From a virus (lineage: Duplodnaviria; Heunggongvirae; Uroviricota; Caudoviricetes), in the IMG/VR virus record IMGVR_UViG_2657245634_000002: a stretch of 6,182 bases of DNA. The stretch is one strand, 5' to 3'. This document shows, piece by piece, positions 2,988 to 6,182 of this stretch. The position numbers were made by a program, and so were the translations under genes. Below the pieces are notes generated by a model. It did not search any database. It worked only from the letters and a program-made list of their open reading frames with translations, and had not been told where the DNA came from. Position 1 is the stretch's first letter. Every line of letters begins with the position of its first letter.

Positions 2988-3082
2988 CAGAACGTGCCCC
3001 CGCGCACGGGCGGCACGGGGTGGCGAAAGGCACTGCCACATCAAAACCCCGTCCACCGCCCTCTATTTCAGGAGAAAGCAGC

Positions 3083-3547
3083 ATGAAGTTTGTTGCGCCA
3101 GAACAGGCACCGGAACAGGCGGAAATCATCAGGAATACGCCGTTCTGGCCTGATGTGGACTTGTCGGAGTTTCGCAGTGTCATGCGCACTGACGGCACGG
3201 TGACGCAGCCGCGTTTAAAGCAGGTTGCGCTGTCGGCAATTTCGGAGGTCAACGCAGAGCTGTATGAGTTTCGCAGACGTCAGCAGATGCTGGGGTATGC
3301 GTCGCTGGCTGAGGTTCCGGCGGAACAGCTGGACGGCAAAAGTGAGCGCATTCAGCATTATTTCAACGCGGTTTACTGCTGGGCACGCGCCATGCTCAAC
3401 GAACGTTACCAGGACTATGACGCCACGGCGTCCGGTGTGAAGCGGGGCGAGGAACTGGCGGAAGCAAGCGGTGATTTGTGGCGTGACGCCCGCTGGGCCA
3501 TCAGCCGGGTGCACGATGCGCCGCACTGCACAGTGGAGCTTATCTGA
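3083..3547 (+). CDS. L: Head (capsid) completion protein (P2 gpL family)
   Basis: ATG at 3083 preceded by GGAG at 3071-3074. The ORF track's longer version begins at a GTG at 3020 with no RBS. Protein MKFVAPEQ...NTPFWPDVDLSEF...NAELYEF...DLWRDARWAISRV resembles P2 gpL. Its stop overlaps the X start (TGATGA). Confidence 0.9.
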   Translation: MKFVAPEQAPEQAEIIRNTPFWPDVDLSEFRSVMRTDGTVTQPRLKQVALSAISEVNAELYEFRRRQQMLGYASLAEVPAEQLDGKSERIQHYFNAVYCWARAMLNERYQDYDATASGVKRGEELAEASGDLWRDARWAISRVHDAPHCTVELI

Positions 3548-3750
3548 TGAAAGTGCGTGCGCATCAGTATGACACGGTGGACGCGCTTTGCTGGCGTCAT
3601 TACGGGCGCACGCAGGGTGTCACGGAGCAGGTACTGAAGGCAAATCCGGGGCTTGCCGAATACGGCCCCTTTTTACCTCACGGGCTGCAGGTGGAGCTGC
3701 CGGACATTCCGACCACCACCACCGTGCAGACCGTCCAGCTATGGGACTGA
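3547..3750 (+). CDS. X: Tail protein X (P2 gpX family, LysM-related fold)
   Basis: 67-aa ORF MKVRAHQYDTVDALCWRHYGRT...NPGLAEYGPFLPHGLQVELPDI, the right size, position and sequence character for P2 gpX. Start overlaps the L stop. Confidence 0.85.
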   Translation: MKVRAHQYDTVDALCWRHYGRTQGVTEQVLKANPGLAEYGPFLPHGLQVELPDIPTTTTVQTVQLWD

Positions 3751-3753
3751 ATT

Positions 3754-3969
3754 ATGACGCTTGAGCGAATCAGCGCCTTTATCACGTATTGCATCGCCGT
3801 CGTGCTGGCCTGGCTGGGCGATTTGTCCATCAAGGATGCCTCAACGCTGGGCGGCCTGATGATTGGTGTGCTGATGCTGGCTATCAACTGGTACTACAAA
3901 CACAAAGCCTACCAGCTTCTGCGCGACGGGCAGATCTCGCGGGAGGACTATGAATCCATCAATCGTTAA
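3754..3969 (+). CDS. Y: Holin, class II (two TMDs), pinholin-like
   Basis: 71-aa protein with two hydrophobic helices (ISAFITYCIAVVLAWLG and LGGLMIGVLMLAINWYY) and a charged C-terminal tail. Sits immediately upstream of, and overlapping, a SAR-type endolysin. It is shorter than the P2 Y holin and resembles the phage-21 S pinholin class in size and topology. Confidence 0.8.
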   Translation: MTLERISAFITYCIAVVLAWLGDLSIKDASTLGGLMIGVLMLAINWYYKHKAYQLLRDGQISREDYESINR

Positions 3970-4465
3970 ACGCTGCCTTGTCGGGGCCGTGCTGGCTATT
4001 GCTGCCACGCTGCCGGGTTTTCAGCAGCTTCACACCTCCGTGGAAGGGCTGAAACTGATTGCCGATTACGAAGGTTGTCGTCTGCAGCCGTATCAGTGCA
4101 GCGCGGGTGTCTGGACCGACGGCATTGGTAATACGTCGGGCGTCATTCCCGGCAAAACCATTACGGAGCGACAGGCAGCAGAAGGGCTGATCTCCAACGT
4201 GCTGCGTGTGGAGCGGGCGCTGGAAAGGTGTGTGAAGCAACAGCCGCCGCAGAAGGTGTATGACGCTGCGGTGTCGTTTGCCTTCAACGTGGGTACGGGC
4301 AATGCCTGCAGTTCCACGCTGGTGAAATTGCTCAATCAGCGGCGCTGGGCGGATGCGTGCCGACAGTTGCCGCGCTGGGTTTATGTGAAAGGTGTTTTTA
4401 ATCAGGGGCTGGATAACCGCCGTGCGCGGGAGATGGCCTGGTGCCTTAAAGGAGCTGGACTATGA
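3950..4465 (+). CDS. K: SAR endolysin, T4-lysozyme-like muramidase (GH24)
   Basis: 171 aa. N-terminal weakly hydrophobic Gly/Ala-rich segment KRCLVGAVLAIAATLPGF typical of a signal-anchor-release domain. Catalytic-triad-like spacing E-x8-C-x5-T in YEGCRLQPYQCSAGVWTDGIGNT. Downstream FAFNVGTGN...STL...LNQ...ACRQL.RWVY block resembles P21 R / RrrD-type lysozymes. Strong GGGAGGA RBS 4 nt before the ATG. Start lies inside the 3' end of the holin gene. Confidence 0.9.
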   Translation: MNPSIVKRCLVGAVLAIAATLPGFQQLHTSVEGLKLIADYEGCRLQPYQCSAGVWTDGIGNTSGVIPGKTITERQAAEGLISNVLRVERALERCVKQQPPQKVYDAAVSFAFNVGTGNACSSTLVKLLNQRRWADACRQLPRWVYVKGVFNQGLDNRRAREMAWCLKGAGL

Positions 4466-4890
4466 CGCGTGCGCTGGCAGTAGTGGTGGCGCTGGCACTC
4501 GTTGCGCTGGGCTGGCAGTCGTGGCGGCTTAACAGCGCCAGCCACACCATCGAAACGCAGCGCGCGGCGCTGAAAAGTAAAGCGCAGGAACTGACGAAGA
4601 AAAACAGCCAGCTGATCGGTCTGTCCATTCTGGCTGAAACCAACAACCGGGAGCAGGCGCGGCTCTACGCCGAAGCTGAACAAACCAGCGCACTGCTGAG
4701 ACAACGACAACACCGGATTGAGGAACTGAAACGTGAGAACGAGGATTTACGCCGCTGGGCTGATACTCCTTTGCCTGCTGACATTATCCGGCTGCGAAAA
4801 CGTCCGGTATTCACCGGAGGTGCAGCTTACCGTCAGTGGTTGTCCGCGAGTGACGCCGTGTCGGCTGGATCAGGCCGCGCCGCGCACTAA
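4462..4890 (+). CDS. lysB: i-spanin (Rz-like, P2 LysB family)
   Basis: 142 aa. N-terminal TMD ALAVVVALALVALGW, then a long charged predicted coiled-coil region (ETQRAALKSKAQELTKKNSQ...IEELKRENEDLRRW). ATG overlaps the endolysin stop (ATGA) with GGAG upstream. An out-of-frame lipoprotein gene is embedded at its 3' end. Confidence 0.85.
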   Translation: MTRALAVVVALALVALGWQSWRLNSASHTIETQRAALKSKAQELTKKNSQLIGLSILAETNNREQARLYAEAEQTSALLRQRQHRIEELKRENEDLRRWADTPLPADIIRLRKRPVFTGGAAYRQWLSASDAVSAGSGRAAH

Positions 4891-5023
4891 CGGTGATCTG
4901 AACGCATTGCTGGATGAAACGGAGGCCGCCTGGGCGGTCTGTGCAGACAAAGTGGACATGATTATTGCGTGTCAGGAGCGAAACAGTGAACAAACCACAA
5001 TCCCTGCGCCACGCCCTCAATAA
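4733..5023 (+). CDS. lysC: o-spanin, outer-membrane lipoprotein (Rz1-like, P2 LysC family)
   Basis: GTG start within lysB in another frame. Signal peptide with lipobox LTLSGC, a Pro- and Cys-containing mature region, short overall length. It overlaps the lysB 3' end and extends past it (overlapped rather than fully embedded spanin architecture). Confidence 0.8.
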   Translation: MRTRIYAAGLILLCLLTLSGCENVRYSPEVQLTVSGCPRVTPCRLDQAAPRTNGDLNALLDETEAAWAVCADKVDMIIACQERNSEQTTIPAPRPQ

Positions 5024-5417
5024 AGCAGTGCCTTATGTCCGTAATAACCCGGACAAACTGCATCTGTTTGTAGATAATGGTTCGCTGGTTGCCACCGGGG
5101 CCAGCTCCATGTCATGGGAGTATCGTTACACCCTGAACGTGGTGATAGAGGATTTCAGCGGCGACCAGAATCTGCTGATGGCCCCGGTTTTGCTGTGGCT
5201 GCGTGATAACCAACCTGATGCCATCAATAATCCGGCATTACGGGAAAAGCTATTCACCTTTGAGGTGGATATTCTGCGCAACGATGTCTGTGATATCAGC
5301 CTTAACCTGCAGCTGACAGAGCGTGTGGTGGTCAACACTGACGGCAGTGTGTCGAGCGTTGAAGCTATAGCGGAACCCGATGAACCTGAAGAAATGTGGA
5401 CGGTGAAACGTGGCTGA
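4986..5417 (+). CDS. R: Tail completion protein R (P2 gpR family)
   Basis: Protein ...KPQSLRHALNKAV...NPDKLHLFVDNGSL...RYTLNVVIEDFSGD..LLMAPVLLWLRDNQPD...ISLNLQLTER resembles P2 gpR. Preferred start is GTG at 4986 with AGGAG at 4974-4978. The ORF track's TTG at 4965 is an in-frame alternative. Overlaps the lysC 3' end. Confidence 0.85.
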   Translation: MNKPQSLRHALNKAVPYVRNNPDKLHLFVDNGSLVATGASSMSWEYRYTLNVVIEDFSGDQNLLMAPVLLWLRDNQPDAINNPALREKLFTFEVDILRNDVCDISLNLQLTERVVVNTDGSVSSVEAIAEPDEPEEMWTVKRG

Positions 5418-5859
5418 ATTGCAGAAGGTGGACGACTGGCTGAGTGCCTTGCTGGCGAATCTGGAGCCTGCCGCAAGAAGCCGCATGATGCGCCAGCTGG
5501 CGCAGGAACTGCGCCGGACACAGCAGCAGAATATCAGGATGCAGCGCAATCCAGATGGCAGCAGTTATGAGCCGCGACGGGCAACAGCACGCAGTAAAAA
5601 AGGCCGCATCAAACGCCAGATGTTTGCAAAGCTGCGCACCACAAAATACCTGAAAACTGCCGCCAGCGCCGATTCTGCCAGCGTGCAGTTTGCTGGCAAG
5701 GTGCAGCGTATTGCCCGTGTTCATCACTACGGCCTGCGAGAACGTATTCAACGAATTAATATGTCTATTAAGTATCCATGTAGAAAGTTGTTGGGAGTTA
5801 ATGAACAATTAATCATTGACTTAGAAAAATTATTAGTAGAGTATTTCGCTCAAAATTAG
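5410..5859 (+). CDS. S: Tail completion protein S (P2 gpS family); 3' end compositionally atypical
   Basis: 149-aa ORF whose GTG start overlaps the R stop by 8 nt, the same R/S overlap arrangement as in P2. Basic central region and VHHYGLRER motif fit gpS. The last ~35 codons (from about 5745) are AT-rich, unlike the rest of the gene. Confidence 0.85.
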   Translation: MAELQKVDDWLSALLANLEPAARSRMMRQLAQELRRTQQQNIRMQRNPDGSSYEPRRATARSKKGRIKRQMFAKLRTTKYLKTAASADSASVQFAGKVQRIARVHHYGLRERIQRINMSIKYPCRKLLGVNEQLIIDLEKLLVEYFAQN

Positions 5860-6182
5860 TACATCTGTGTGACAATATGCAACAGTTTATTCAGATTTTA
5901 CAAACTATTTCCACATGGCCGTTTGCTTTCATCTTTGGTCTATGTATTTTATATCGTCCTATAAATATGTTGTTTAGTAGATTTATTGAAAGTAATACGG
6001 CAAAAGCTAAATTAGGATTTGTGGAGCTAGAGATTGGAGAGCTAGCTAAAAAAGGAAGAGAGGCTGTTGATAATTTTAATGAGTTAACCATTGTTATGGC
6101 TAAGACTCGGTTGTTGGAGTTAGAGGTTACTAAAGAGAACTTTTCTGCAGCGTTTTCATCTAATCAGCAAGTTAAATTAAAT
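5745..6182. other. Abrupt low-GC segment: start of a horizontally acquired cargo (moron) region at the S-V variable locus
   Basis: By eye, base composition changes from well over 50% G+C across 1-5740 to roughly one third G+C from about 5745 to the window end. The boundary falls inside the 3' end of gene S, not in an intergenic gap. Confidence 0.6.
5877..6182 (+). CDS. Hypothetical membrane-anchored protein, first gene of low-GC cargo; 3' end outside window
   Basis: ATG at 5877 opens a frame that stays open for 102 codons to the window edge despite AT-rich sequence, where chance stops are frequent. Translation MQQFIQILQTISTWPFAFIFGLCILYRPINMLFSRFIESNTAKAKLGFVELEIGELAKKGREAVDNFNELTIVMAKTRLLELEVTKENFSAAFSSNQQVKLN has one N-terminal hydrophobic helix followed by a charged, helix-prone region. 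No family recognised. No clear Shine-Dalgarno; the start is 17 nt after the S stop. Confidence 0.5.
   Translation, partial: MQQFIQILQTISTWPFAFIFGLCILYRPINMLFSRFIESNTAKAKLGFVELEIGELAKKGREAVDNFNELTIVMAKTRLLELEVTKENFSAAFSSNQQVKLN

Follow-up and report, generated by a model that had tools for sequence, protein, structure and literature searches.

Nucleotide comparison of the window, that is, the whole 6,182-nt stretch of DNA that was analyzed, showed 100% identity with E. coli chromosomes, and identity with phage Cartapus was 97%. In the best overall explanation, which is considered likely as a whole, the window comes from an E. coli prophage of the P2 family (Peduoviridae, Elveevirus-like) and represents its late (O) operon, with the lysis cassette at positions 3754-5023. 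The gene order was O-N-M-L-X-hol-lys-lysB-lysC-R-S. The upstream edge of the cassette is marked by the gene for tail protein X (3547-3750, plus strand), a P2 gpX homologue (PF05489, 2.2e-34) with the same position in P2, Cartapus, SEN8 and others, and the downstream edge by the tail completion gene R (4986-5417, plus strand), a P2 gpR homologue (PF06891, 3e-47). The start of R in RefSeq corresponds to window position 4986, and the list of open reading frames also permits a TTG start at 4965.

The reading frames of the cassette are real genes and not chance ORFs, and the same DNA was present in E. coli chromosomes and in Cartapus. The gene features described in the first-pass annotation, namely a 71-aa holin with two membrane segments, an endolysin with an E-x8-C-x5-T pattern, an ATGA overlap between the endolysin gene and lysB, and overlapped spanins, were all present where it had placed them. 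Antisense and other-frame ORFs within 3754-5023, such as 3959-4240 and 4402-4713 on the minus strand and 4392-4532 on the plus strand, were taken as coding-strand shadow ORFs. No Rfam family was matched anywhere in the window at gathering thresholds. Terminators were not in excess in a scan of 3400-6182, which also covered promoters and gave nothing informative within the cassette; its promoter-like matches were weak (9 of 12 positions). PADLOC gave no match to the cargo genes downstream of S.

The same annotation had proposed that a holin and endolysin foreign to P2 were set in a P2 backbone, P2 itself carrying Y-K-lysA-lysB-lysC, and both parts of this description held. According to the P2 record, the Y-K-lysA-lysB-lysC genes lie in the same place between X and R; the flanking X, R and S of the window, as well as lysB and lysC, were P2 homologues, the latter two with the same overlapped architecture. 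However, the P2 holin Y has three TMDs and belongs to another family (PF04550, phrog_175), the P2 endolysin K is soluble and unrelated to that of the window (phrog_90/17029), and P2 has LysA, while the window has none. The holin and endolysin of the window differed from Y and K in PHROG and Pfam, and BLASTP showed no significant similarity. GC content was 0.56-0.61 over the cassette and its flanks, with no compositional trace of a recent swap. This HP1-type holin was found together with the SAR endolysin in 1,029 of 5,426 complete E. coli genomes, compared to 1,498 with the P2 Y-K type. The cassette is one of two standard lysis modules in the P2-family prophages of E. coli, and the combination of holin, SAR endolysin and two spanins is already known and annotated in hundreds of genomes. 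Cartapus was 97% identical over 3500-5100, with an identical gene order and a holin protein that was 100% identical.

The holin and endolysin genes

The first gene of the cassette (3754-3969, plus strand) encodes a class II holin of 71 aa that belongs to the HP1 holin family and is a probable pinholin. It matched PF16080 (HP1 holin family; TCDB 1.E.7) with 36.7 bits (E 4.3e-9; curated cut-off 28.8 bits) and phrog_20 'holin' at 1.9e-26, and the same PHROG was also matched by S21 of phage 21 (1.1e-32) and by HP1 Hol (9.3e-10). The match to PF04971 (P21 S) was 23.2 bits, under the cut-off of 26. The relation to these holins shows at the profile level only: in BLASTP the alignment to HP1 Hol had 21% identity and was not significant (E 0.19), and there was no alignment to S21. 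The identical protein is named 'HP1 family phage holin' in RefSeq. Hydropathy placed TMD1 at residues 6-22 and a second hydrophobic peak at about residues 28-48 (TMD2 about 32-48), with an acidic loop (charge -1) and a charged, basic C-terminal tail (5 K/R and 4 D/E). Small size, two membrane segments (judged by hydropathy only), a charged tail and a position just upstream of the endolysin gene are all characteristics of HP1-type class II holins.

TMD1 (ISAFITYCIAVVLAWLG) had a mean KD of 2.12, a summed Hessa energy of -0.56 and 35% G/A/S/T, and by hydropathy it was not a weakly hydrophobic, G/A/S/T-rich segment of the SAR-like type; neither S21 nor HP1 Hol had a KD17 peak of at least 1.5 at TMD1. 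Because the segment is far more hydrophobic than its S21 and HP1 counterparts, it is doubtful that TMD1 of the window holin would leave the membrane in the manner of S21. This suggests that not every holin of the S21/HP1 family can fit the S21 model in which TMD1 exits, which bears on the prediction of pinholins from sequence. The gene has a single Met start and no dual-start antiholin motif, because an in-frame stop codon (3748-3750) lies directly upstream of the ATG. HP1 Hol is likewise without the motif (PMC7312051), so a dual start is not universal among pinholins. Phage 21 resembles the window in having a 71-aa, two-TMD class II holin (S21-68) of phrog_20 next to a GH24 SAR endolysin (R21), but the window holin has neither the MKSM dual-start antiholin of S21 nor its weakly hydrophobic TMD1, which is rich in G/A/S and exits the membrane.

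Since TMD1 is strongly hydrophobic, unlike that of S21, pinholin status is something we infer from family membership and from the pairing with a SAR endolysin, and the term 'pinholin-like' that had been applied to this holin stands to that extent. The feature that fits the term least well is the same TMD1, and the pairing has a second possible reading, as SAR endolysins work with canonical holins as well as with pinholins (PMC9025707). A canonical class II holin making large holes could serve here, the collapse of the membrane potential freeing the SAR endolysin as P1 LydA does for Lyz. We regard this as unlikely, though a serious alternative. It would suit a TMD1 that is not SAR-like, and the likeness of the window holin to S21 and HP1 Hol, the two pinholins studied by experiment, is confined to profiles; on the other side, the family is named after HP1 Hol and the PHROG is that of S21, both of which behave as pinholins (PMC7312051), and a holin gene that adjoins and overlaps a SAR-endolysin gene is the typical pinholin layout (PMC9025707). 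The SEN8 homologue, 80% identical, is labelled 'pin holin', which is an annotation only.

The endolysin gene (3950-4465, plus strand) shares its first 20 nt with the end of the holin gene, has a GGAGG Shine-Dalgarno sequence at 3942-3946, and encodes a GH24 enzyme of the P1 Lyz type with 171 aa (PF00959, 4.7e-40). Its best solved relatives were the structures of P1 Lyz, a disulfide-isomerization SAR endolysin, in the inactive form 1XJT (2.1e-26) and the active form 1XJU. Identity to HP1 Lys was 34% (2e-27), with the same N-terminal Cys, E-G-C and catalytic Cys pattern, and the R21 structure 3HDE was matched with an E of 1.5e-17. R21 itself has an E-D-T triad, the canonical one, and is activated by another mechanism. 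In the window, residue-by-residue alignment to 1XJT identified a predicted catalytic and regulatory motif, E41-G-C43-x6-C50-x5-T56 (4070-4117, plus strand), in which E41 (codon 4070-4072), C50 (4097-4099) and T56 (4115-4117) form the pattern E-x8-C-x5-T. E41, C43, C50 and T56 aligned with E42, C44, C51 and T57 of P1 Lyz, which bears out the triad variant that had been read from the sequence at the outset.

The N-terminal segment that had also been called SAR-like at the outset (residues 9-24, CLVGAVLAIAATLPGF; 3974-4021, plus strand) is by hydropathy a predicted signal anchor of the SAR type; it follows K7-R8 and contains Cys9. It had a hydrophobic core of 13 residues (C9-L21), a mean KD of 1.8-1.95 and 35-41% G/A/S/T. 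Together with C43 and C50, Cys9 makes up a three-Cys set that corresponds to C13, C44 and C51 of P1 Lyz, where a Cys is also found in the N-terminal hydrophobic segment. The N-terminal Cys was kept in 16 of 19 diverged homologues having a hydrophobic segment, and the Cys at E+2 was kept in all 19. The two enzymes also differ: the SAR segment of the window is shorter and less glycine-rich than that of P1 Lyz, and the window enzyme is without the 12-residue insertion in the C-terminal lobe. These comparisons support the prediction that the window encodes a P1 Lyz-like SAR endolysin.

It is very unlikely that the N-terminus is instead a cleavable Sec signal peptide, releasing a soluble periplasmic enzyme under some other control. 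Cleavable signal peptides can have a hydrophobic core as short as this one, a helix-breaking P-G comes after it as in many signal peptides, and SignalP called the N-terminus of HP1 Lys a signal peptide (PMC7312051). However, a rule-based check found no SPase I (-3,-1) site 3-7 residues past the core; strict (-3,-1) matches fell either inside the core or in the conserved catalytic domain, 12 residues further on. Conservation of the N-terminal Cys together with the Cys at E+2 and the catalytic Cys is a pattern that would be expected only of a segment retained by the mature enzyme, as it is in P1 Lyz, and the alignment to 1XJT begins at query residue 13, so it includes the segment.

Spanins and the predicted course of lysis

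The lysB gene (4462-4890, plus strand) encodes a 142-aa, Rz-like spanin of the inner membrane, whose N-terminal TMD was placed by hydropathy at about residues 4-18 (peak at residues 1-17). Its ATG overlaps the endolysin stop codon (ATGA at 4462-4465), and an AAGGAG Shine-Dalgarno sequence was found at 4448-4453. The protein matched TIGR03495 (174.9 bits; cut-off 92.75) and phrog_89 (5.8e-47), and was 34% identical to P2 LysB over 76 aligned residues (5e-10). The lysC gene (4733-5023, plus strand; GTG start) encodes an Rz1-like outer-membrane lipoprotein spanin of 96 aa, which matched PF23793 and, over residues 5-88, NF038368 (124 bits; cut-off 27). It has the lipobox LSGC with Cys21 (4784-4795), a residue other than Asp at +2, and an N-terminus, MRTRIYAAG, that compares with MRTKIFAAG in P2 LysC. 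The 'overlapped' spanin architecture is seen in lysC, which begins within lysB, is read in a different frame and extends 133 nt past the end of lysB; the start of gene R lies in turn within the 3' end of lysC. This gene is subject to gaps in annotation, being absent from the Cartapus record and truncated at its start in RefSeq annotations of E. coli.

The closest experimental parallel to the cassette is that of Haemophilus phage HP1 (Peduoviridae, Hpunavirus), for which experiments published in 2020 demonstrated a pinholin and a SAR endolysin (Adamczyk-Poplawska et al., PMC7312051). Expression of HP1 hol was lethal without lysis and without leakage of beta-galactosidase, whereas HP1 lys caused lysis on its own in a Sec-dependent manner; HP1 is without an antiholin, and the gene that follows is lysB-like (PMC7312051). 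As in the window, a small holin gene is followed by an overlapping endolysin gene and directly by the LysB-like gene (orf25), both cassettes are without a dual start and without an antiholin gene, and the holins share PF16080 and phrog_20. In contrast, the window TMD1 is far more hydrophobic, the two holins are not detectably similar in pairwise comparison, and the HP1 cassette lies after the tail tube genes while that of the window lies after gene X. The window also has a clear P2-type LysC lipoprotein, and no obvious spanin features were found for HP1 (PMC7312051). The topology of the HP1 holin was described by its authors as unusual and unresolved (PMC7312051). P1 is less similar in its organization, with several unlinked holins (LydA, LydC and LydD) and an antiholin, LydB (PMC9025707).

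A pinholin acting with a SAR endolysin is the likely mechanism of this cassette, because the holin shares its PHROG with the pinholins of phage 21 and HP1 and because the endolysin is closest to P1 Lyz and has the same three-Cys pattern. The holin, a 71-aa class II protein from the family of the HP1 and phage 21 holins, would build up in the inner membrane until, at a critical level, it depolarized the membrane, most likely through small pinholes. The GH24 endolysin would meanwhile be exported by Sec and tethered by its N-terminal SAR segment to the periplasmic face of the membrane in an inactive state, in which the catalytic Cys50 is probably caged by a disulfide with Cys43, as in P1 Lyz. Depolarization would free the SAR segment, allowing Cys9 to attack the caging disulfide and Cys50, once free, to take part in murein cleavage. 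LysB, the inner-membrane spanin, and LysC, the outer-membrane lipoprotein spanin, would then disrupt the outer membrane. With neither a dual start nor LysA, the cassette would operate without an antiholin. Sec export, tethering and release by depolarization have been tested by experiment for P1 Lyz and HP1 Lys (PMC9025707, PMC7312051), and the explanation as a whole, mechanism included, which has been shown for relatives, probably applies to the window as well. The mechanism class having already been demonstrated in HP1 (PMC7312051), the cassette matters little for discovery.

Presence and absence of lysA

The P2 LysA family (phrog_162; NCBIfam NF038378, DNZ54_00345 family) consists of proteins of about 125-141 aa with four TMDs. 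The first-pass annotation had noted that the window encodes no such protein, and this was confirmed by tblastn in all frames of the window using P2 LysA and two LysA-like queries, for which the best match was short with an E of 0.24 (a positive control scored 6e-79 with the same queries). tblastn with LysA queries did not find lysA in the whole Cartapus genome either. In lysA-positive relatives, a 378-bp gene located between the endolysin gene and lysB encodes a 125-aa protein with four hydrophobic segments, which matched phrog_162 at 4.6e-43 (P2 LysA, 1.8e-67). Based on blastn break-points and junction sequences, the corresponding junction in the window was located at 4456-4462, where seven bases stand in for 383 bp of SEN8 (L007 2703-3085).

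The lysA-positive relatives included KP12, 500465-1, 813R9 and 4LV2017, with holins that were identical to that of the window or 97-99% so, and SEN8 and MLG42, with holins 80% identical. The KP12 holin was 100% identical, yet lysA is present in KP12. In the same set of 5,426 complete E. coli genomes, the lysA-like gene was counted in 780 and the lysA-less junction in 233, beside the 1,029 with this holin and endolysin; about three quarters of the E. coli copies of the cassette carry lysA. The lysA-less form was also found in Cartapus, Dagavirus ST13-OXA48phi12.1, RCIP0057, YenM_06.16-2 and HP1, and lysA was absent from Yersinia and Klebsiella peduoviruses. In the Dagavirus the same type of junction occurred at only 77% DNA identity. 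A recent deletion of lysA was considered and rejected: compared to 500465-1, the arm to the left of the junction was 97% identical and the arm to the right 89%, and the Dagavirus, at 77% identity, has a junction of the same type. The allele without lysA is old and widespread, and exists beside a lysA-containing allele with the same holin and endolysin. It is a frequent natural variant, and the arrangement is not new, given the HP1 study (PMC7312051) and database annotations.

Decay by deletion in a defective prophage, which would mean that the cassette is not a working design, is a most improbable explanation of the missing gene: relatives at about 95-97% identity have lysA and several frameshifted endolysin-LysA fusion alleles in databases indicate that the junction does mutate, but the junction here is tidy, with an intact endolysin stop codon, the Shine-Dalgarno sequence and the ATGA coupling to lysB, it is present in 233 complete E. 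coli genomes and its type recurs in the Dagavirus, lysA is also absent from the Yersinia and Klebsiella peduoviruses and from HP1, Cartapus releases encapsidated genomes (PMC9928086) with no lysA anywhere in its own, and the P2 record lists lysA as non-essential even in P2.

The absence of lysA had at first been read as part of the alternative lysis strategy swapped in with the holin and endolysin. This part of the proposal did not hold, as phages with an identical holin carry a LysA homologue. Because phages with identical or near-identical holins carry a homologue of P2 LysA, as do about three quarters of the E. coli copies, the swap of holin and endolysin and the presence or absence of lysA are separate polymorphisms. 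Given that lysA-less and lysA-containing alleles coexist with the same holin and endolysin, LysA is probably an optional timing accessory, and not a component that the swap made redundant.

LysA homologues adjoin lysB behind two unrelated pairs of holin and endolysin, P2 Y/K and the HP1-type holin with the SAR endolysin. As they are found behind both pairs, and are present or absent beside holins that are 100% identical, it may tentatively be suggested, although we consider it quite unlikely, that LysA is not a holin-specific antiholin and could act on a shared target, such as the LysB/LysC spanin step or membrane energetics. If so, such a role could be tested directly with the alleles that occur naturally with and without lysA. 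Whatever LysA does, alleles that differ in lysA and have identical holins and endolysins constitute a natural experiment on its function.

Database entries for a 296-aa protein that appear to describe a two-domain enzyme, 'endolysin + PF28015', were found to arise from 1-nt frameshifts that fuse the endolysin with the LysA-like ORF that follows it, and the position of the frameshift differed between entries.

Gene order of the late operon

Judged from its gene content, the window is a P2-type late operon. The ORF list and family scans identified scaffold O (425-1258), capsid N (1275-2333), terminase M (2337-2987), head completion L (ending at 3547), tail X (3547-3750), holin (3754-3969), endolysin (3950-4465), lysB (4462-4890), lysC (4733-5023), tail completion R (ending at 5417), and S (5410-5859), all on the + strand. 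For gene L, the mechanical ORF from a GTG at 3020 (3020-3547, 175 aa) is longer than the form in RefSeq and phage records, which starts at window position 3083 (154 aa), and the Pfam match of the long form starts only at residue 37.

The window DNA was 100% identical to prophages in E. coli chromosomes, such as that of strain WAT, and positions 3500-5100 were 97% identical to Escherichia phage Cartapus (Peduoviridae, Elveevirus), a P2-like prophage of strain LF82 whose encapsidated genomes are released from LF82 cultures (PMC9928086). In the E. coli copies, RefSeq names the lysis genes 'HP1 family phage holin', 'lysozyme', 'Rz-like lysis system protein LysB', and 'Rz1-like lysis system protein LysC'; elsewhere the databases contain 'pin holin' (phage SEN8) and 'SAR-endolysin' (RCIP0057). 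This holin and endolysin were found in 1,029 of 5,426 complete E. coli genomes, and the P2-type Y-K pair in 1,498. The lysis cassette is already known and common, and as a finding is therefore of low interest.

Immediately past gene S, GC content falls from ~0.58 to 0.33 (5860-6182, continuing at 8744-10316 of the WAT prophage locus). The WAT gap between S and V, the position of P2 orf30, encodes a 127-aa hypothetical protein starting at window position 5877 and a 404-aa PcfJ-domain protein (PF14284, 1.2e-11), and PADLOC gave no match to either. In Cartapus and phage 813R9 the gap holds other cargo, encoded on the opposite strand. The gap is a variable moron/hotspot locus of P2-like phages.

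Holin and endolysin

The first-pass annotation had proposed a pinholin-like holin of 71 aa with two hydrophobic segments, and that length and both segments (residues 6-22 and about 28-48 by hydropathy) were found, as was every other sequence feature that it listed. The protein scored 36.7 bits against the HP1 holin family PF16080, above the curated threshold of 28.8, and 23.2 bits against the phage 21 S model PF04971, just below the cut-off of 26. It belongs to phrog_20 (1.9e-26), which is also matched by the S21 pinholin (1.1e-32) and HP1 Hol (9.3e-10); the S21 query matched its counterpart in phage 21 (record OL657228) at 100% identity. Pairwise BLASTP of the window holin against S21 and against HP1 Hol detected no significant similarity. 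Multiple alignment of the three revealed a common layout, with an N-terminal [ED][RK]IS, an LSxxD loop, and NxY[YF]K past TMD2. With a stop codon three bases upstream of its ATG, the holin lacks a dual start.

Activation of the S21 pinholin requires TMD1 to exit the membrane. TMD1 of the window holin, ISAFITYCIAVVLAWLG, is strongly hydrophobic (mean Kyte-Doolittle 2.12, 35% G/A/S/T), whereas S21 TMD1 and the corresponding HP1 segment show no hydropathy peak. We therefore reasonably infer a pinholin from family membership and gene context, the sequence itself being no demonstration, and pinhole formation and its manner are uncertain given this hydrophobic TMD1. That the protein is a canonical holin is less probable in light of the same family and context, but this reading is a serious rival because canonical holins as well as pinholins can serve SAR endolysins, as a P1 study found (PMC9025707).

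A pinholin, the preferred reading, would resemble the system of HP1, a P2-family phage in which hol kills without lysis or beta-galactosidase leakage, the product of lys is a SAR endolysin that depends on Sec and shares 49% identity with P1 Lyz, there is neither dual start nor antiholin, and the next gene is LysB-like (Adamczyk-Poplawska et al., PMC7312051). That paper mentions Lyz 1XJU only as this 49%-identical homolog of HP1 Lys. A P1 Lyz-like SAR endolysin (KP12.peg.319) was noted in phage KP12, and a pinholin partner sought (PMC9902359); from the adjacent numbering peg.319/peg.320 we infer that it is the cassette endolysin.

The window endolysin carries the proposed SAR-like segment, CLVGAVLAIAATLPGF, a hydrophobic stretch behind basic residues K7 and R8, and the proposed E-x8-C-x5-T triad variant, as E41-G-C43-x6-C50-x5-T56. 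Its best solved relatives were P1 Lyz, inactive (1XJT, E 2.1e-26) and active (1XJU), with phage 21 R (3HDE) behind (1.5e-17). E41/C43/C50/T56 align with P1 E42/C44/C51/T57, and the cysteine of the hydrophobic segment is C9 here and C13 in P1 Lyz. In P1 Lyz, these three cysteines carry out disulfide caging and isomerisation upon release of the SAR domain. By analogy with characterised relatives, the endolysin would be exported by Sec and tethered to the membrane, with C50 caged by C43 and freed by C9, and holin-triggered depolarisation would be the release signal.

A search of 1.84 billion representative proteins yielded 19 diverged homologs (≤75% identity) with the catalytic Cys and an N-terminal hydrophobic segment. 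All 19 have a Cys at E+2, and 16 have one at the N-terminal edge of the segment; the other three look N-terminally truncated. Conservation of a Cys inside the segment argues that it stays on the mature enzyme as a signal-anchor. A cleaved signal peptide would suit the short hydrophobic core (13 residues) but is very improbable given this Cys, and a (-3,-1) rule scan found no signal-peptidase site 3-7 residues past the core. The catalytic Cys at E+9 is likewise present in many soluble GH24 homologs (P0165-P0267) that lack such a segment, and roughly half of these have a Cys at E+2 as well (EGCxLxAYxC), so the Cys43-Cys50 pair is not confined to SAR-type enzymes.

Spanins

As the first-pass annotation described, lysB directly follows the endolysin with an ATGA overlap, its ATG lying over the endolysin stop at 4462-4465, and the spanins overlap, lysC starting within lysB in another frame and ending 133 nt past it. 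LysB, which carries a TMD near its N-terminus, scores above the cut-off of the TIGR03495 equivalog model. LysC does so for NF038368 and contains the lipobox LSGC (Cys21); like their characterised relatives, the two spanins would disrupt the outer membrane. The LysC N-terminus, MRTRIYAAG, matches that of P2 LysC (MRTKIFAAG), which makes the GTG at 4733 the true lysC start. In the region of this start (window 4733-4775; locus L012 8277-8352), translation from the GTG yields MRTRIYAAG..LSGC. The RefSeq (PGAP) start is a CTG codon at window position 4775, which loses most of the lipoprotein signal peptide; lysC is unannotated in the Cartapus RefSeq record, and in several phage records just a short piece of its 3' end is annotated. 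Identity to phage 500465-1 was 97.4% upstream of a junction at window 4443-4480 (X, holin, endolysin) and 89.4% downstream (lysB, lysC, R), which indicates that recombination broke the sequence between endolysin and lysB and that the spanin module has been exchanged as a mosaic.

Presence and absence of lysA

Comparison with P2 confirmed its order Y-K-lysA-lysB-lysC and the lack of lysA here: tblastn with P2 LysA and two LysA-like queries found no homolog in any frame of the window and recovered the gene in a control locus. None was found in the whole 33 kb of Cartapus, a phage that nonetheless releases encapsidated genomes. The alignments to many relatives at about 95% DNA identity were split in two by about 375 additional bases in those relatives. 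Phages 500465-1, 813R9, 4LV2017, and KP12, along with SEN8 and Yersinia MLG42, which are more distant, have a gene of 378 bp that separates endolysin from lysB. In SEN8 the difference from the window is a precise indel the size of the gene, with 383 bp in place of window 4456-4462. The 125-aa product of this gene has four hydrophobic segments, falls in the PHROG of P2 LysA (phrog_162, 4.6e-43 versus 1.8e-67 for P2 LysA), and is named DNZ54_00345 family by NCBI and LysA or antiholin in some records.

KP12 and the window have 100% identical holins, so the same holin works both with and without LysA. The proposal of a coherent alternative lysis strategy is plausible as to mechanism class, but its corollary that lysA is missing because none is needed is wrong. 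Among the 5,426 E. coli genomes, 780 have the lysA-like gene and 233 the lysA-less junction. Since relatives with and without lysA share the same cassette, holin/endolysin replacement and lysA presence or absence are independent polymorphisms.

The lysA-less junction type consists of an endolysin end KGAG[L/A], the ATGA overlap, and a LysB start MTRALA. A recent lysA deletion was considered and rejected, as this junction type is shared by Klebsiella Dagavirus ST13-OXA48phi12.1, whose DNA is only 77% identical. There is no lysA either in Yersinia YenM_06.16-2, Klebsiella RCIP0057, and HP1.

Dozens of database entries related to the window endolysin (P0007, P0013, P0016, and others) are in-frame endolysin-LysA-like fusions of 276-296 aa. 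They arise through a 1-nt frameshift close to the stop codon of the endolysin, at a position that varies among entries. These are mostly singletons and probably assembly errors, while P0013, recorded on 30 contigs, may be a real allele; if real, the fusion would fix the lysozyme to an anchor of four TMDs.
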